Source: Verrucomicrobia bacterium CG1_02_43_26 (lineage in GTDB: Bacteria > Verrucomicrobiota > Verrucomicrobiia > Opitutales > CG1-02-43-26). From it: a stretch of DNA of 64,000 nucleotides. The position numbers were made by a program, and so were the translations under genes. Location: assembly GCA_001872735.1 (NCBI GenBank), contig MNWT01000014.1, positions 10,832 through 74,831 of the forward strand, written 5' to 3'. The notes under the pieces were generated by a model that was not told the DNA's origin, ran no database searches, and worked only from the letters and a program-made list of their open reading frames with translations. This document shows, piece by piece, positions 6,335 through 56,818 of the stretch (its first letter is position 1; each line of letters begins with the position of its first letter).

Positions 6335-7141
6335 ATGTCAGGAATAATCATTAACACGAACATATCTGCAGTAGATGCAACAAATAACTTAAATAGAAGC
6401 AATACTGCGCTACAAAAAAGCTTAAACCGTTTATCTAGCGGTTCCAAAATTATATCACCTGCCGATGACGCTGGTGGTTTGGCTGTATCCATGAAAATGT
6501 CAGCAGCCCTTAAGCGCAACATGGTCACACAAGATAATATAGCAAATGCTGTATCGTTCTTGCAGACTCAAGACGGTTCTTTGAAAACCGCTGGCAAAAT
6601 CATGGAGCGTATATCAGAATTAGCCACACTCTATAGTGACCCTACTAAAAGTTCTACGGACAAGTCAAACTACTCAACGGAGTTTAATCAACTAACATCT
6701 CAGTTAACACAGATTCAAGCAGAATCCTTTAACGGGGTTAGCATGTTTGCTACATCCAGTAGTAGTTTGAGTGTGAGTATAAATGAGGATGGCACTCAGT
6801 CTGTTAATGTTACAAAAGCTAATTTAAATAGCTCTGTGACGACAATTACGTCTGCTACAACGCTTTCAGGTATTACGGTTGCCGATACAACTTCAGGTAT
6901 CAACAGTATCGCTACACTACGAGCCACCAACGGTGCACAGACAAATCGTTTACAATTCGCCGCTGATTTGCTCGTAGTTAATAAAGTTAACCTTGAGTCT
7001 GCTAATAGCCGTATTTTGGATACCGACATCGCGCAAGAATCAACTAATTTTGCAAGGCTAAACATACTGGTACAATCGGGAGCAGCTATGTTGTCGCAAG
7101 CAAATGCATCTGCCCAGGTAGCGTTAAAACTCCTAGGGTAA
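6335..7141 (+). CDS. fliC: flagellin (short, 268 aa), copy 1
   Basis: N-terminal NRLSSG.KI..ADDAGGLAVS and C-terminal SRI.DTDIAQEST....NILVQSGAAMLSQAN flagellin D0/D1 signatures. AAGGAGGA Shine-Dalgarno. Confidence 0.9.
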   Translation: MSGIIINTNISAVDATNNLNRSNTALQKSLNRLSSGSKIISPADDAGGLAVSMKMSAALKRNMVTQDNIANAVSFLQTQDGSLKTAGKIMERISELATLYSDPTKSSTDKSNYSTEFNQLTSQLTQIQAESFNGVSMFATSSSSLSVSINEDGTQSVNVTKANLNSSVTTITSATTLSGITVADTTSGINSIATLRATNGAQTNRLQFAADLLVVNKVNLESANSRILDTDIAQESTNFARLNILVQSGAAMLSQANASAQVALKLLG

Positions 7142-7171
7142 ATCCTGGCTACTGAAAACGAAAATCCCGTC

Positions 7172-7205
7172 AAAAAAGCCTCTTTTTATGAAAGAGGCTT
7201 TTTTG
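7172..7205 (+). terminator. intrinsic terminator after flagellin copy 1
   Basis: aaaaaaGCCTCTTTttatgAAAGAGGCtttttt hairpin followed by a T-run. Confidence 0.8.
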
Positions 7206-7241
7206 TATCCAAAAATAAAATACAAAATTTTAAAAAAAACT

Positions 7242-7268
7242 TAAGAAACTAACGCTTTTTACGATTAT
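7242..7268 (+). promoter_or_regulatory. sigma-28-type promoter, flagellin copy 2 (weakest match)
   Basis: TAAGAAAC-N11-ACGATTAT, with the same geometry as the other three copies. Confidence 0.45.
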
Positions 7269-7367
7269 ATAGTTACGCAAAAATAAATTGCACAAGGGTG
7301 CCAATCCCTTAATCAAAATGGACCTCGGTAATAGGGAATTGCCAAAAAAATCAAGGAGGATAAGACA

Positions 7368-8174
7368 ATGTCAGGAATAATCATTAACACCAATATATCT
7401 GCGGTTGACGCAACCAATAATCTGAACCGCAGTAACTCATCTCTACAAAAGAGCTTAAATCGCTTGTCCAGCGGTTTTAAAATTATATCACCTGCCGATG
7501 ACGCAGGTGGTTTAGCTGTGTCTATGAAAATGTCAGCAGCTCTTAAGCGTAATAGTGTTACTCAGGATAATATAGCGAATGCTGTATCGTTCTTGCAGAC
7601 ACAAGATGGTGCGCTGAAGACAGCCGGTAAAATTATGGAACGTATCTCTGAATTGAGCACACTTTATAGTGACCCAACAAAGAGCTCTACTGACAAAGCG
7701 AACTATTCAACCGAGTTCAATCAGTTGACATCGCAGTTAACACAAATACAAGCTGAAGCCTTCAACGGAGTCAGTATGTTTGCGACCTCTTCTAGCAGTC
7801 TGACAGTTGCCATTACGGAAGACGGTTCACAAAGTGTTAGTGTAGCAAAAGCAAACTTGAATAGCGGCGTCAGTACCATAACAGCTGCTACGACACTATC
7901 CGGTATCACCGTTTCAAATACGAGCACAGCGATCAATAGTATCGCCACGTTGCGTGCTACCAATGGTGCGCAAACAAATCGATTGCAGTTCGCATCTGAT
8001 TTGCTCGTTGTTAATAAAGTTAATCTTGAGGCTGCCAATAGCCGTATCATCGATACTGATATCGCGCAAGAATCTACAAACTTCGCTCGATATAATATAC
8101 TCGTACAGTCCGGAGCTGCAATGCTCTCACAGGCGAATGCTTCTTCTCAAATTGCGTTAAAACTCCTAGGATAA
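7368..8174 (+). CDS. fliC: flagellin (268 aa), copy 2
   Basis: Same signatures as copy 1. I count 28 aa differences from copy 1 by hand alignment. Confidence 0.9.
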   Translation: MSGIIINTNISAVDATNNLNRSNSSLQKSLNRLSSGFKIISPADDAGGLAVSMKMSAALKRNSVTQDNIANAVSFLQTQDGALKTAGKIMERISELSTLYSDPTKSSTDKANYSTEFNQLTSQLTQIQAEAFNGVSMFATSSSSLTVAITEDGSQSVSVAKANLNSGVSTITAATTLSGITVSNTSTAINSIATLRATNGAQTNRLQFASDLLVVNKVNLEAANSRIIDTDIAQESTNFARYNILVQSGAAMLSQANASSQIALKLLG

Positions 8175-8203
8175 ATCCTGATCGCAGTTATCCCAATCCC
8201 GTC

Positions 8204-8238
8204 AAAAGCCCCTTTCTTAAGGGGCTTTTTCTTTTTTT
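8204..8238 (+). terminator. intrinsic terminator after flagellin copy 2
   Basis: AGCCCCTTtcttAAGGGGCT hairpin followed by tttttcttttttt. Confidence 0.8.
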
Positions 8239-8253
8239 AGTTTATAAACAAGC

Positions 8254-8280
8254 TAAAGTTTTTCATTTAAAAGACGATTG
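8254..8280 (+). promoter_or_regulatory. sigma-28-type promoter, flagellin copy 3
   Basis: TAAAGTTT-N11-GACGATTG. Confidence 0.6.
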
Positions 8281-8381
8281 TATAGCTATCAGGATCTATG
8301 TTCTGAAAAGGGTGCCAGTCCCTTAATAAAATGGCCCTCGGTAATAGGGAATTGCCAAAAAAAATCAAGGAGGATACCAAA

Positions 8382-9188
8382 ATGTCCGGAATAATCATCA
8401 ACACCAATATATCTGCGGTAGATGCAACCAATAATCTTAATCGCAGTAATTCATCTCTACAAAAGAGCTTAAACCGCTTGTCCAGTGGTTTTAAAATCAT
8501 ATCACCTGCAGATGACGCTGGTGGTTTGGCTGTATCCATGAAAATGTCCGCAGCACTTAAACGTAACATGGTCACGCAAGATAATGTAGCGAATGCTGTA
8601 TCATTCTTGCAGACACAGGATGGTTCGTTAAAGACTGCAGGTAAAATCATGGAACGTATCTCTGAGTTATCGGCACTATACAGTGACGTGACAAAGAGTT
8701 CTACAGACAAATCAAACTACTCAACCGAATTCAATCAGTTGACGTCACAGTTAACACAAATACAAGCTGAGGCCTTCAATGGTGTTAGTATGTTTGCGAC
8801 CTCTTCTAGCAGTCTTACGGTTGCCATTACGGAAGATGGATCACAAAGTGTGAGTGTTACAAAATCTAATCTGAACAGTGCCGTTAGTACCATAACAGCT
8901 GCTACAACACTATCTGGTATTACAGTTGCGAATACAAGTACAGCCATTAATAATATTGCTACCTTGCGTTCTACAAATGGTGCGCAAACAAATCGTTTGC
9001 AGTTTGCGTCTGATCTGCTCGTGGTTAATAAAGTTAATCTCGAGGCCGCAAATAGCCGTATCATCGATACTGATATTGCGCAAGAATCTACAAACTTCGC
9101 TCGGTATAACATACTGGTACAATCGGGAGCCGCAATGCTTTCTCAAGCAAATTCATCTTCGCAAATTGCGTTGCGTTTGCTTGGTTAA
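8382..9188 (+). CDS. fliC: flagellin (268 aa), copy 3
   Basis: Start placed at MSGIIINTN (8382), behind the AAGGAGGA Shine-Dalgarno as in the other copies. The track ORF start at 8331 is the conserved leader that happens to be in frame. I count 15 aa differences from copy 2 by hand. Confidence 0.9.
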   Translation: MSGIIINTNISAVDATNNLNRSNSSLQKSLNRLSSGFKIISPADDAGGLAVSMKMSAALKRNMVTQDNVANAVSFLQTQDGSLKTAGKIMERISELSALYSDVTKSSTDKSNYSTEFNQLTSQLTQIQAEAFNGVSMFATSSSSLTVAITEDGSQSVSVTKSNLNSAVSTITAATTLSGITVANTSTAINNIATLRSTNGAQTNRLQFASDLLVVNKVNLEAANSRIIDTDIAQESTNFARYNILVQSGAAMLSQANSSSQIALRLLG

Positions 9189-9216
9189 TCCTGATCGCAG
9201 TTATCCCAATCCCGTC

Positions 9217-9250
9217 AAAGGCCTCTTTTCGAAGAGGCCTTTTGCTTTTT
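9217..9250 (+). terminator. intrinsic terminator after flagellin copy 3
   Basis: AAAGGCCTCTTttcgAAGAGGCCTTT hairpin followed by a T-rich tail. Confidence 0.8.
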
Positions 9251-9272
9251 CAGTTTTAACTATAAAAAAAGT

Positions 9273-9299
9273 TAAAGTTATTTAATATGTGGACGATTT
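9273..9299 (+). promoter_or_regulatory. sigma-28-type promoter, flagellin copy 4
   Basis: TAAAGTTA-N11-GACGATTT. Confidence 0.6.
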
Positions 9300-9407
9300 A
9301 TAAAACATCAGGGCTAATAGGCTCTGACAAGGGCGCCAATCCCTTAATCAAATGGCCCTCGGTAATAGGGAATTACCTGAAAAATCAATCAAGGAGGATA
9401 TAATCAC

Positions 9408-10214
9408 ATGTCCGGTGTAATCATCAATACAAACATTGCAGCCGTTGATGCTACGAACAATCTGAATCGTAGTAACTCGTCTCTGCAAAAGAGCTTAAAC
9501 CGCTTATCAAGCGGCTTTAAGATCATCACCCCAGCAGATGACGCTGGTGGTTTGGCTGTGTCTATGAAAATGTCAGCAGCAATCAAGCGTAATAGTGTGA
9601 CTCAAGATAATATAGCGAATGCTGTATCATTCTTGCAGACACAAGATGGCGCGTTGAAAACTTCTGGTAAGATCATGGAACGTATCTCTGAGTTATCGGC
9701 ACTATACAGTGACGTGACAAAGAGTTCTACAGACAAATCAAACTACTCAACCGAGTTCAATCAGTTGACTTCGCAGTTGACGCAGATACAAGCTGAAGCC
9801 TTCAACGGCGTCAGTATGTTCGCGACATCGTCCAGTAATCTTAGTGTAGCTATCAGTGAAGATGGATCACAGAGTGTTAATGTAGCAAAAGCTAACTTAA
9901 ACAGTGCTGTTTCTACCATTACAGCTGCTACGACACTATCTGGTATCACGGTTGCGAACACAAGTACAGCGATCAATAGTATTGCTACCTTGCGTGCTAC
10001 TAATGGTGCGCAAACAAATCGCTTGCAGTTTGCATCCGATTTGTTAGTAGTCAACAAAGTTAATCTCGAGGCCGCAAATAGCCGTATCATCGATACTGAT
10101 ATTGCACAGGAATCGACTAACTTTGCGAAGTTCAATATATTGGTACAGTCTGGTGCTGCTATGTTGTCCCAAGCAAATGCTTCTTCACAGATAGCATTAC
10201 GTTTGCTTGGTTAA
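9408..10214 (+). CDS. fliC: flagellin (268 aa), copy 4
   Basis: Same flagellin N- and C-terminal signatures. Starts MSGVIINTN. Confidence 0.9.
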   Translation: MSGVIINTNIAAVDATNNLNRSNSSLQKSLNRLSSGFKIITPADDAGGLAVSMKMSAAIKRNSVTQDNIANAVSFLQTQDGALKTSGKIMERISELSALYSDVTKSSTDKSNYSTEFNQLTSQLTQIQAEAFNGVSMFATSSSNLSVAISEDGSQSVNVAKANLNSAVSTITAATTLSGITVANTSTAINSIATLRATNGAQTNRLQFASDLLVVNKVNLEAANSRIIDTDIAQESTNFAKFNILVQSGAAMLSQANASSQIALRLLG

Positions 10215-31466: not shown

Positions 31467-32237
31467 CTAAAGCGCTTGCCGTTCGTAATCCAGTGCGGCA
31501 AGCGCGTAAAGCGCCGCTGTTTCTACCCGCAACACATTCTTGGCCAATCGAACTGGTAAAACGTTAACCGACCTTGCCATCTCGTATTCCGAAGGAGTAA
31601 AGTCGCCCTCTGGCCCAATCAGAAAAATCAACTGTTTCAAGTTTTTAAAATCTAATTTTTGGAGGGTGTTTTTTAAGGGGACACTATTCGCTTCCAAACT
31701 CCCCATCAAGCATACTTCATTATCAGAAATCGAGGCAGATAAGCTCTCTATGTAATGCTTAAAGGTTTGTATCTCAGTAATCTGGGGTATGCACAGGTTA
31801 CCGGATTGCTTGCAGGATTCAATGGCAGTGTGCTCCCAGCGTTGCCCTTTGTTTTCTTTACGTTCCGCGTTTAATTGAACCTCGGTACGTTCTGTTTGTA
31901 GGGGAATGATCCTGGTCGCCCCAATTTCGGTTGCCTTGCGTATAATGGATTCCATGGTTTTTCCTTTAGGAATCGCCACAGCCAGGGTAATTTCAGGATA
32001 TTGTCTGGTAACTGCTTTTATATTGCCTGCTGTCACAACAGCGGCATGTTTACGTATTTCAGTCACATTTCCTTCGCAAAAGCAGTTATCGGCACTAAAC
32101 AGCGTTACTTGGTCACCTACCTGTGCTCTCAAAACATTTACCAAATGGTGAGATTCCTCCTTCGATAAGGTAAATTTATGTTCTTTGTTTGGGCTATTTT
32201 TGGGTAAACCTGAATAAAAGCAGCAAAATTTCTTCAT
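31467..32237 (-). CDS. rsmE: 16S rRNA (uracil1498-N3)-methyltransferase RsmE
   Basis: PUA-like N-terminus with HHLVNVLR, and a C-terminal SPOUT region (FLIGPEGDFTPSE, LRVETAAL). Confidence 0.85.
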   Translation of the reverse strand: MKKFCCFYSGLPKNSPNKEHKFTLSKEESHHLVNVLRAQVGDQVTLFSADNCFCEGNVTEIRKHAAVVTAGNIKAVTRQYPEITLAVAIPKGKTMESIIRKATEIGATRIIPLQTERTEVQLNAERKENKGQRWEHTAIESCKQSGNLCIPQITEIQTFKHYIESLSASISDNEVCLMGSLEANSVPLKNTLQKLDFKNLKQLIFLIGPEGDFTPSEYEMARSVNVLPVRLAKNVLRVETAALYALAALDYERQAL

Positions 32238-32295
32238 TATAACTTATTGCGGTTAAGGGACTTGTGTTTTTATTTAAAATTATTTAAATTTTTTT

Positions 32296-32323
32296 GAACA
32301 AAGTCTGATTAAGGGCAGTCTAC
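32296..32323 (+). promoter_or_regulatory. ECF (RpoE/AlgU-like) type promoter candidate, sRNA candidate A
   Basis: GAAC-N19-TCTAC, preceded by an AT-rich box (TAAATTTTTTTGAAC) that is identical in copy B. Confidence 0.4.
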
Positions 32324-32329
32324 CTATAT

Positions 32330-32436
32330 GAATCTACTGGTCAACGAGTAAGATTAAAATTTTCAAGTTGGTTTGTAGTTTGTCTTTAGGTTTTGAAATA
32401 ATCGCTCACTCAAAAGGTGGGCGATTTTTCTTTTTT
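32330..32436 (+). ncRNA. candidate small RNA A (5' end approximate), ending in an intrinsic terminator
   Basis: Identical 25-nt block GGTTTGTAGTTTGTCTTTAGGTTTT (32370-32394), then hairpin AATCGCTCAC/GTGGGCGATT followed by tttttctttttt (32400-32436). No protein-coding potential. Confidence 0.5.
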
Positions 32437-32496
32437 AGAAAATTACCCGGTAGAAAGAAATTTTGCTACATGCTCAATTTTTTTTTAAATTTTTTT

Positions 32497-32524
32497 GAAC
32501 GAATGTCAGAATAAGGCTGTCTAC
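32497..32524 (+). promoter_or_regulatory. ECF-type promoter candidate, sRNA candidate B
   Basis: GAAC-N19-TCTAC with exactly the same spacing as copy A. Confidence 0.4.
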
Positions 32525-32530
32525 CCTTAT

Positions 32531-32633
32531 AGATAAACCCAATCATATTGGTGAAAATTTCAATTTAGATAGGTTTGTAGTTTGTCTTTAGGTTTTAGAA
32601 GGCCGTCTCTGTGGAGGCGGTCTTCTTGTTTTT
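32531..32633 (+). ncRNA. candidate small RNA B (5' end approximate), paralog of A
   Basis: The same 25-nt block at 32572-32596, then a 13-bp hairpin AGAAGGCCGTCTC/GAGGCGGTCTTCT followed by tgttttt (32597-32633). Confidence 0.5.
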
Positions 32634-32654
32634 CAGCTATTTTGCGGGCTTTAA

Positions 32655-33293
32655 TTAAGGTGCTAGACGCTCAATTATCCAGTTGCCTTTATCATCCAAG
32701 CGATATTGAAAGCGGTCGTGGAGGCGTTTATTCCTTCCTTGCCAGAATTCAAAAGCAATTGGGGTTATGCAATAGCCGCCCCAGTTGTCAGGAAGATCAA
32801 TGGGGTGATCTTTGAATTTTTGCTCAAATTGATCGAATCGATCATCCAAAAATGCTCGGTTAGGGACAACCTGGCTTTGAGGAGATGCCCAAGCGCCAAT
32901 CTGACTTTCACGTGGCCTTGTTTTGAAATAAGAGGCAGACGCTTCTGATGACAACTTTTCGGCACGCCCTAAAACTTGAATTTGCCTGTTTAAAGGAAGC
33001 CAAAGAAATAGAAGAGAAACATTCGGATTTAGAGTAATATCTTGTGCTTTTCGGCTACCATAGTTGGTGTAAAAGACGAATCCGCGGGAATCGAAAGACT
33101 TCAGGAGTAGGGTGCGGTTGCATGGGAAGTTGTCCTGACGGATCGTTCCTAGAGTAAAGGCATTGGGTTCTTCTATGTTTGAGTTAACCGCTTCATCGAA
33201 CCATTGCTGAAATTGCTGAATAGGATCTGCCTTAAGAGCCGTTTTTCTTAGGCCTTTCTCCGAATATTCCTTGCGCATATCATGAATTTCCAT
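32655..33293 (-). CDS. pdxH: pyridoxamine 5'-phosphate oxidase
   Basis: 212 aa. FVFYTNYGSRKA, IEFWQGR..RLHDR, and the characteristic C-terminal ...ERLAP. Confidence 0.9.
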   Translation of the reverse strand: MEIHDMRKEYSEKGLRKTALKADPIQQFQQWFDEAVNSNIEEPNAFTLGTIRQDNFPCNRTLLLKSFDSRGFVFYTNYGSRKAQDITLNPNVSLLFLWLPLNRQIQVLGRAEKLSSEASASYFKTRPRESQIGAWASPQSQVVPNRAFLDDRFDQFEQKFKDHPIDLPDNWGGYCITPIAFEFWQGRNKRLHDRFQYRLDDKGNWIIERLAP

Positions 33294-54984: not shown

Positions 54985-56652
54985 TTATTCTCCTTGGTTC
55001 TTCTCTACGATATCGAAAGCATCGCTGAGGCTTGTGAGTTCGTCTTGCTTAATTTTGTCATAAGCAACGATTTCACGAGCGAGCTGATCGGTATTGTAAG
55101 AAGCAGCCTTGATGGAGAGGCCGATACGGCGTTCATCTCTGTCGATCTTGATAACACGGGCTGTCACTTCTTGGCCAACGCTGAGAACATCTTTGATCTT
55201 TTCAATGTGTTCTTCACCGATTTGGCTGATGTGGACAAGGCCATCGATATCATTTTTCAATTCAATGAAAGCGCCATAGGCAGTGATCTTAGCGACCTTA
55301 CCGGAAACGATATCACCGACCTTGAAGTTCTTTTCGATGTTTGACCAAGGATCTTCGTGGAGTTGTTTAACACCAAGAGAGATACGTTGTTGAGAAGGAT
55401 CTACGTCTAGGACGATCGCTTCAATTTCGTCACCCTTCTTGAGGACTTCACTTGGATTGTTGATCTTACGAGTCCAGCTCATATCGGAGACGTGGATCAT
55501 ACCATCGATACCTTCTTCGAGTTCAACGAACGCACCGTAGGTAGTTAGGCTGCGGACTTTACCGCGAACACGGGCACCTGCTGGGTAGTTGTGTTTTGCC
55601 ATTTCCCATGGGTTTGTTTCAAGTTGACGGATACCAAGGGAGATCTTTTGCTCATCCTTTTGGATACCGAGGACGACAGCGTCCACTTCGTCACCAATGC
55701 GAAGGACTTCGCTTGGTTTAGTGATGCGCTTTGTCCAGGAAAGTTCTGTAACGTGTACGAGACCCTCAACGCCTTGTTCGAGCTCGATGAACGCGCCATA
55801 AGGAACAAGGTTAACGACTTTACCGTGTACATGCGCACCAATTGGGAATTTCGCTTCGATGTGCTCCCATGGATTGGAAGTGGTTTGTTTAAGACCGAGG
55901 GAAACGCGCTCGCGATCGCGGTCGATTTCGATGATAATGACGTTGATTTCTTCGCCCACCTTAAGCATTTCACTTGGGTGAGAGATACGACCCCAGCTCA
56001 TATCTGTGATATGGAGGAGACCATCGAGGCCATCGAGATCGATAAACGCACCGTAGTCAGTGATGTTCTTAACGGTACCACGGCAAGTTTCACCCACTTT
56101 AACTTCATCGAGAAGCTTACGACGTTTGACCTGACGTTGCTCTTCGATGAGCTCACGACGGGAAACGACGATATTTTTGCGATCAAGATTGATCTTAAGG
56201 ATTTTAAAGTCGTACGTTTGGCCGACGTATTGATCCAGATTCTTGGGAGGTTGGATATCGATTTGAGAAGCAGGAAGGAAAGCGTCTACGCCGATGCTGA
56301 CGATTAAGCCGCCCTTGACCTTGCTTTTAATGCGGCCGGGGATAATGGTACCCTCTTGGCATTTATTAAGGATATTCTCCCAATTCTTTTTCTGTTCTGC
56401 CTTATCGAAAGAAATAACGGGATAACCGTCTTTGTTTTCAATCTTTTCCAAGAACACTTCGACATCGGAACCGATGGATAATTCGCTTGTGTCGATGAAT
56501 TCGTGCGCAGGGATGATACCCTCTGATTTGGCACCGATATCAATAACGACTTCGTTTGGGCGAATTTCTGTGATTGTTCCTTTGATTATGGATCCCTCTT
56601 TTAGGGCTCCGATTCCGCTCTGTTTGAGCAGTTTTTCCATTATAGAACTCAT
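54985..56652 (-). CDS. rpsA: 30S ribosomal protein S1 (six S1 domains)
   Basis: 555 aa with six repeats of the S1 OB-fold pattern (G..V.G.V......GAF(V/I)(E/D)L..G(V/I)(E/D)G(L/M)(V/I)H(V/I)S). Confidence 0.95.
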   Translation of the reverse strand: MSSIMEKLLKQSGIGALKEGSIIKGTITEIRPNEVVIDIGAKSEGIIPAHEFIDTSELSIGSDVEVFLEKIENKDGYPVISFDKAEQKKNWENILNKCQEGTIIPGRIKSKVKGGLIVSIGVDAFLPASQIDIQPPKNLDQYVGQTYDFKILKINLDRKNIVVSRRELIEEQRQVKRRKLLDEVKVGETCRGTVKNITDYGAFIDLDGLDGLLHITDMSWGRISHPSEMLKVGEEINVIIIEIDRDRERVSLGLKQTTSNPWEHIEAKFPIGAHVHGKVVNLVPYGAFIELEQGVEGLVHVTELSWTKRITKPSEVLRIGDEVDAVVLGIQKDEQKISLGIRQLETNPWEMAKHNYPAGARVRGKVRSLTTYGAFVELEEGIDGMIHVSDMSWTRKINNPSEVLKKGDEIEAIVLDVDPSQQRISLGVKQLHEDPWSNIEKNFKVGDIVSGKVAKITAYGAFIELKNDIDGLVHISQIGEEHIEKIKDVLSVGQEVTARVIKIDRDERRIGLSIKAASYNTDQLAREIVAYDKIKQDELTSLSDAFDIVEKNQGE

Positions 56653-56818
56653 ATGGAATTTGGTTAGTAGTTAATGTTCTTTGTTGCGACTCATTTCACC
56701 GTGAAATGAACGAAATTCGATAATGCTTTGGATTTGAGGAAATTACAAGTGAAAAAAGCTGGTGCGTGGGTAGTTTTTTTTGAATAAAAAATGGCTAAAC
56801 TCAGAGGTGAAGTTGCCT

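Follow-up and report, generated by a model that had tools for sequence, protein, structure and literature searches.

What is the function of two closely similar units that lie side by side between two genes, point in the opposite direction to both of them, and appear to encode no protein? The question is raised by a gap of 417 bp between rsmE and pdxH in the window, i.e., the whole 64-kb stretch of DNA analyzed here (GC ~42%). The earlier note had described this gap as gene-free and both flanking genes as lying on the minus strand, and the coordinates confirm it. The only open reading frames in the gap are two unsupported TTG-started frames of 48 and 77 aa, in line with the view that it holds no credible coding potential. 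It does hold two plus-strand units, unit 1 at 32285-32436 and unit 2 at 32486-32633. Based on the evaluation of their sequences and those of their relatives, we lean toward the interpretation that they are free-standing, ECF-driven small RNAs of an Opitutae family. The features assigned to the locus are as follows.

31467-32237, minus strand: rsmE, 16S rRNA m3U1498 methyltransferase family (Pfam Methyltrans_RNA and PUA_4, homologues)
32270-32293, plus strand: A/T-rich, UP-like stretch upstream of the unit 1 promoter, including most of the 15-nt box
32285 and 32486 (start positions), plus strand: shared 15-nt box TAAATTTTTTTGAAC, present in both units
32294-32299, plus strand: unit 1 -35 element TTGAAC, conserved in the family
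32318-32323, plus strand: unit 1 -10 element GTCTAC (family consensus gCGTCT(a/t)nC, 17-19 nt after TTGAAC)
32329-32436, plus strand: predicted unit 1 transcript, ~108 nt (from the fold; start placed from the -10 position, +/-3 nt)
32370-32394, plus strand: unit 1 G/U-rich core of 25 nt, GGTTTGTAGTTTGTCTTTAGGTTTT, identical in unit 2
32371-32380, plus strand: part of the core that is invariant across the family, here in unit 1, GTTTGTAGTT (from the conservation in relatives)
32400-32436, plus strand: unit 1 intrinsic terminator, hairpin 32400-32426 (11 pairs), then a T run
32495-32500, plus strand: unit 2 -35 element TTGAAC, as in unit 1
32519-32524, plus strand: unit 2 -10 element GTCTAC, as in unit 1
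32530-32633, plus strand: predicted unit 2 transcript, ~104 nt (start placed likewise; fold)
32572-32596, plus strand: unit 2 G/U-rich core GGTTTGTAGTTTGTCTTTAGGTTTT, identical to the unit 1 core
32597-32633, plus strand: unit 2 intrinsic terminator, hairpin 32597-32626 (13 pairs), then a T run
32655-33293, minus strand: pdxH, convergent with unit 2 (context only)

Direct comparison of the two units revealed a graded similarity. The 15-nt box is identical, the motif TTGAAC-N19-TCTAC recurs with the same spacing at 32294-32323 and 32495-32524 (equivalent to TTGAAC-N18-GTCTAC), and the core is conserved at 25 of 25 positions, all of which had been recognized in the earlier note (the motif there as GAAC-N19-TCTAC). 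Ten of 12 positions match in the -10 region, falling to 22 of 41 in the variable 5' part, the poorly conserved middle of the earlier description, and to 23 of 42 in the terminator. The terminators had been claimed to differ in sequence while both fold, one with a 10-bp and one with a 13-bp stem; this holds true except that the first stem comprises 11 pairs, not 10. As the core is identical and the terminators have diverged yet still fold, what is under selection is the sequence of the core and the foldability of the 3' end, not the 3' sequence. A third copy of the 25-mer core does not occur in the 64-kb window at up to three mismatches, with zero expected by chance. The tandem duplication has a period of ~201 bp and takes in a fragment resembling the pdxH 3' end (32464-32479 and 32661-32676). 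In addition, rsmE codons 2-5 (32222-32234) show a perfect inverted match of 13 nt to the spacer that separates the two units (32455-32467), which was the single inverted repeat seen that could explain an inversion. The 13-nt match and the pdxH-like fragment may be the footprints of an inversion and a duplication behind the present arrangement.

Extension of the analysis toward other genomes followed three independent routes. A scan with 20 nt of the core only, covering one genome per species, matched three Opitutales/Verrucomicrobia MAGs, all showing the same promoter-core-terminator layout. The second route was based on rsmE synteny and used no RNA sequence. RsmE homologues at 40-47% identity are found in Opitutales, including Opitutus terrae and Pelagicoccus, and units were detected upstream of rsmE in O. 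terrae PB90-1, in Pelagicoccus (two in tandem), and in two low-GC relatives with two units each. In O. terrae PB90-1 (CP001032.1, plus strand), CGTCT is at 58,485-58,489, the predicted RNA of ~95 nt at about 58,495-58,591, and the rsmE ATG at 58,656. Together with its GC content and the divergence of its pdxH, the RsmE comparison suggests that the window stems from a divergent, low-GC member of the Opitutae. The third route, a metagenome scan with the promoter plus a 10-nt core as query, resulted in at least 119 loci; approximately two thirds are true members, and the other third of the listed loci are chance matches inside genes, without terminator. Over all routes, at least 83-93 distinct units were collected from soil, freshwater, and marine Opitutae, including the cultivable and fully sequenced O. 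terrae PB90-1. The use of pdxH as a further route was discarded, its nearest homologue being only 55% identical; contigs with the exact pdxH protein came from metagenomes only, and their intergenic regions were all identical.

A covariance model was trained on 81 relatives and on no sequence of the window, which was then searched with filters off. Unit 2 ranked first (32553-32634, 32.6 bits, E 2.8e-5), followed by unit 1 (32351-32438, 30.1 bits, E 1e-4), while the next matches (E >=0.013) were bare terminators. Since a model lacking the window sequences places both units on top, family membership is free of circularity. Across the collected relatives, the same model gave at least 89 matches in 77 sources. 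The search for core and unit in relatives and the covariance model, both proposed in the earlier note, thereby yielded a conserved Opitutae family, present in O. terrae PB90-1 and Pelagicoccus, and a model that finds the two units and nothing else credible in 64 kb. Over 10-25 nt, the core does not change between hosts whose GC content ranges over 30-65%, whereas the stems co-vary. Tandem arrays of two to three units, each unit with its own promoter and terminator, exist in at least 12 relatives, and the copy number per array varies from one to three among relatives.

Scanning against Rfam 15 at the gathering score retrieved only tRNAs from the window and eight relatives. At E <=10, the region gave chance-level matches, the best being trpB with 28.9 bits vs a cut-off of 59. 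Full-text literature searches, whether directed at sRNAs of Verrucomicrobia or Opitutus, at the core sequence, or at an RNA linked to rsmE, brought up nothing relevant, which agrees with the suggestion in the earlier note that the RNAs may be undescribed. Judged by their sequence, the two window units are thus sibling genes of an apparently undescribed family conserved across Opitutae (Verrucomicrobiota). As an aside on their surroundings, units in relatives often have a tRNA gene no more than a few hundred nt upstream (L011 2328-2409, L040 13134-13215, L045 4537-4620, L090 4236-4320, and L028 7537-7618). L123 has an integrase-like ORF and a tRNA downstream of a unit that is no longer next to rsmE. 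With respect to a mobile-element origin, no plasmid or phage similarity of the units was found, and this origin is not supported.

The promoter consensus of the family, tTTGAACG-N15-gCGTCT, was obtained from 93 units among the matches listed. The metagenome set had been selected by TTGAAC and GTCT, so only the other positions and the other sets are informative. TTGAAC is present in 21 of the 21 units recovered independently of the promoter, and 17-19 nt after it these units carry GTCT (12-13), GCCT (7-8), or ATCT (1). Outside the search pattern, TTGAAC is followed by G (88/93), GTCT is preceded by C (74/93), another C stands three nt after GTCT (81/93), and T is favored at -1 to -3 before TTGAAC, each among the matches listed. 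Promoters of the ECF type are characterized by AAC at -35 and CGT at -10 (PMC8103513, PMC5758882). The family consensus contains both hallmarks. Upstream of its three tRNA genes, the window has TTGACT/TTGCAA-N16/17-TAnnnT; therefore, the housekeeping promoter of this organism is of the classical type and the units use another class. Taken together, the sequence comparison supports assignment of the unit promoter to the ECF and not the housekeeping class, as the earlier note had proposed. The same spacing is found in sigmaE promoters of E. coli, rpoH P3 among them. The significance of the promoter derives from its conservation in relatives and not from its count in the window, where two occurrences were found vs 1.1 expected at up to one mismatch, which is not beyond chance. 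Sigma32, the -35 of which TTGAA resembles, was considered and rejected: -10 and spacing fit the sigmaE type, and the unit -10 does not fit the CCCCATnT of sigma32.

None of ten small window ORFs contains an ECF sigma domain, and neither an ECF sigma factor nor Hfq was detected among the 1,578 ORFs of all loci (phmmer with approximate E. coli RpoE and Hfq queries). Of the matches to the motif in 957 kb of locus sequence, 101 correspond to units, and 25 appear to be chance occurrences inside genes. As no further gene was found behind the promoter motif, no regulon is defined. In marine-type relatives, the unit nearest to rsmE consistently has CGCCTA instead of CGTCTA as -10; examples are the second units of L011 (2818-2965), L015, L023, L032, L040, and L118. 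Siblings with CGCCTA and CGTCTA might differ in how efficiently they are transcribed or in the sigma factor that reads them.

With the start placed ~6 nt downstream of the -10 element, the predicted transcript length is ~105 nt. In the alignment of relatives, compensatory changes occur in 12 of 12 pairs of the 3' helix, and 96.7% of terminator cells are paired vs 71% in shuffles and 44-70% in slid controls. RNAalifold, applied to the two subgroups with enough members, gave a 5' stem-loop with some compensatory changes, a G/U-rich stretch of ~35 nt that is nearly invariant and predicted to be unpaired, and the terminator, which is adjoined by U-rich sequence. The sole invariant across the whole family is GUUUGUAGUU. 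Around it, the related short boxes GUAGUU and GU(U)CUUUAG recur in varying order, G and U together make up 71% of the 37 nt surrounding the box, GC-rich hosts included, and UAG appears 3.2 times per unit vs ~1.05 expected from composition. As far as can be judged from the predicted folds, this RNA layout is that of trans-acting base-pairing sRNAs. The idea of a duplicated pair of ~100-nt sRNAs, put forward in the earlier note, stands in so far as the units are conserved, non-coding, and of sRNA architecture, with predicted transcripts of 108 and 104 nt; the Hfq dependence and the envelope-stress role that the earlier note attached to them are its assumptions. In relatives of the O. terrae-like and marine subgroups, AAGUCGGCAAGG comes after the box (e.g., L009 2891-2910, which is O. 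terrae; alignment A3). This resembles AAGUCGUAACAAGG, the 16S rRNA segment around U1498, the target site of RsmE; the resemblance was noticed post hoc, is absent from the window units, and may be coincidence.

From these elements, the most likely mode of action can be proposed for free-standing sRNAs. Each unit would be a self-contained transcription unit consisting of a promoter of the alternative-sigma ECF type (TTGAAC-N17/18-GTCTAC), a ~105-nt transcript, and a strong terminator, and the transcript would comprise a 5' stem-loop that varies and a G/U-rich, unpaired region with the invariant box GUUUGUAGUU. The RNAs would be transcribed when a putative ECF sigma factor responds to the stress that induces it. 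Being exposed, the G/U-rich box would then pair in trans with C/A-rich sites (about AACUACAAAC) in the 5' regions of mRNAs, and the pairing would alter translation or stability of these putative targets.

The strongest challenge to this proposal comes from the neighborhood of the units. According to the earlier note, nothing lies downstream for the units to regulate in cis. This is correct for the present genome, in which rsmE, the conserved neighbor gene of the family, is divergent from the units, but it does not apply to the relatives: among the matches listed, 77 of the 89 related units are immediately followed by rsmE in the same orientation. The distance is below 600 nt in 73 of those, often with only 25-100 nt from terminator to start codon, and larger distances are mostly due to a second or third tandem unit. 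The linked RsmE proteins span 30-100% identity to that of O. terrae. Because of this arrangement, a cis-acting leader or attenuator is a serious alternative and the main rival. Here, TTGAAC/GTCT would be the promoter of rsmE, the terminator a regulated attenuator, and the G/U box the site of a read-through factor, and the short RNA would be a by-product or have a second role in trans. The depth of the linkage across RsmE divergence speaks for this possibility, as does the L047/L067 lineage, in which 24-30 nt separate the terminator from the rsmE ATG, no separate promoter is visible, and rsmE may depend on read-through. However, the window pair has its promoters, cores, and terminators all intact despite being inverted relative to rsmE and facing the pdxH 3' end, which favors free-standing sRNAs, and seven relatives have unrelated genes downstream of the unit. 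Moreover, every unit of the arrays with two or three units has its own promoter and strong terminator, and neither a conserved sensor or aptamer-like fold nor a terminator/antiterminator alternative was seen, the only structured parts being the terminator and the variable 5' hairpin. The O. terrae-like group and the low-GC L012 also carry TTGnnn/TTCAnA-N16/17-TTCACT between terminator and rsmE ATG, which could be a promoter of rsmE itself, with TTCACT being poor as a -10. Overall, we consider a cis or dual role rather unlikely. The tight linkage nevertheless exceeds that of most free-standing sRNA genes, so that a cis role may exist in the family. A combination of both functions, to which we attach a low probability, would be a dual-purpose ribosome stress switch: the unit is fired by the ECF factor, the terminator sets the extent of run-on into rsmE, whereby a stress signal would reach the m3U1498 methylation of 16S rRNA, and the terminated RNA also acts in trans. 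The resemblance of AAGUCGGCAAGG to AAGUCGUAACAAGG would suggest feedback through rRNA mimicry, a weak lead given its post hoc nature.

Two further explanations concern the RNA itself. The repeated G/U-rich boxes (GUAGUU, GU(U)CUUUAG, UAG triplets) could titrate an RNA-binding protein, making the RNA a sponge or decoy. Several related boxes per RNA fit this idea (UAGUG UAGUUCA UAGUUUG UAGUU in O. terrae), and GGUAGUUAAU is carried twice by Pelagicoccus unit b, GUCUUUG repeats occur in L006, the UAG frequency given above is elevated, and the amplification of the gene in tandem raises dosage, as for sponge RNAs. On the other hand, two to five boxes per RNA are far below the numbers in sponges of the CsrB/RsmZ/CrcZ type, the enrichment of UAG is modest as one UAG is fixed in the core, and no candidate protein was identified, so that titration appears improbable to us. 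It is very improbable that the units have no RNA function at all, i.e., that they are a dispersed repeat of the REP/MITE kind or merely a promoter and terminators serving neighboring genes. Seen from the window alone, such a reading could draw on the promoter pattern not exceeding chance and on there being just two copies. The conservation pattern contradicts a dispersed repeat, though: exactly two copies exist in 64 kb and none elsewhere in the window, each relative's genome has one conserved locus, and the core is kept through the whole range of host GC while the stems co-vary. Copies at many loci, named in the earlier note as an observation that would speak against sRNAs, were thus not encountered.

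Comparison with known systems places the putative sRNAs beside several types without homology to any of them. Similar to the sigmaE-dependent sRNAs MicA, RybB, and MicL of E. coli/Salmonella and to VrrA/MicV of Vibrio, the units combine an ECF-type promoter (GAAC...GTCT/TCTnA with sigmaE-like spacing), an RNA of ~80-110 nt, an intrinsic terminator, and a conserved single-stranded region upstream of it. sRNAs of the MicA/RybB/MicL type constitute the repressor arm of an ECF regulon (PMC8103513). Likeness in sequence or structure to MicA, RybB, or MicL is absent, and the units belong to another phylum, the Verrucomicrobiota. The seeds of RybB and MicA are 5'-terminal, whereas the box of the units is internal and G/U-rich. 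In their arrangement, the units resemble tandem sibling sRNAs: they are adjacent paralogues with their own promoter and terminator each and a common core, and from the sequence they would qualify as such. OmrA/OmrB, PrrF1/PrrF2, NgncR_162/163 (NmsR) of Neisseria, and AbcR1/2, all of them proteobacterial families, are likewise adjacent paralogues with own promoter and terminator, and they also share the identical functional core, the diverged flanks, and a copy number varying among relatives. Their sequences and regulators are unrelated to those of the units.

With regard to the presumed pairing surface, the units recall GcvB, the G/U-rich R1 region of which base-pairs with mRNAs at C/A-rich sites in their 5' regions. 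An unpaired, conserved G/U-rich region is common to GcvB and the units, for which the pairing itself is only predicted; their complementary C/A-rich sites would be situated in 5' UTRs without Shine-Dalgarno sequence. Sequence homology to GcvB is lacking, the promoter is of another type, and the units show no linkage to gcvA. Finally, 5' leaders with terminators (attenuators, riboswitch-derived SreA) are also located upstream of one gene on the same strand and end in a terminator, as do the units in most relatives. The units differ from them by having no conserved ligand- or protein-binding fold, by their multiple tandem copies with own promoters, by the inversion in the window, and by being unlinked from rsmE in several lineages.

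Searches for targets of the proposed trans action were of very low power and did not rise above background. A duplex scan of the window gave a best value of -17.5 kcal/mol vs a null best of -18.9 +/- 1.8, and AACTACAAAC was not enriched in 540 5' regions, which were taken from the flanking DNA of relatives only. Upstream of rpsA (54985-56652, minus strand; ribosomal protein S1 with six S1 domains), AACUACUAAC is located at 56663-56672, 11-20 nt before the ATG, and is one mismatch away from the complement of the sRNA box; being a single match, it is not significant. Start codons inspected in the window (e.g., 1772, 25687, 32237, 33293, and 48132) are not preceded by Shine-Dalgarno-like sequence, and the upstream regions of these genes are A/U- or A/C-rich. 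If this absence is general, translation initiation and sRNA targeting in the lineage would be independent of Shine-Dalgarno sequences.

Very little is known of regulatory RNAs in Verrucomicrobia; of ~600 sRNA families tabulated in a survey from 2022, only eight are counted for the whole PVC group (PMC9029176). The family described here is easily recognized by its ECF-type promoter, GUUUGUAGUU box, and terminator, and its presence in the cultivable, fully sequenced O. terrae PB90-1 makes it directly testable. It would offer a first entry to an ECF sigma regulon of the phylum and would exemplify post-transcriptional control where genes appear to lack Shine-Dalgarno sequences. The near-universal position before rsmE offers a natural test of a coupling between an sRNA and an rRNA-modification gene.

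Apart from the gap, the window contains two further sets of tandem genes. At 6335-10214 on the plus strand, four tandem ORFs of 268-285 aa are found, the first of which carries Flagellin_N and Flagellin_C and is a flagellin; from size and spacing only, the remaining ORFs are taken to be paralogues, and terminator-like matches of the covariance model lie between the four ORFs. At 56819-61981 on the minus strand, three tandem paralogous genes of the SNF family (sodium:neurotransmitter symporter) encode ~570 aa each.
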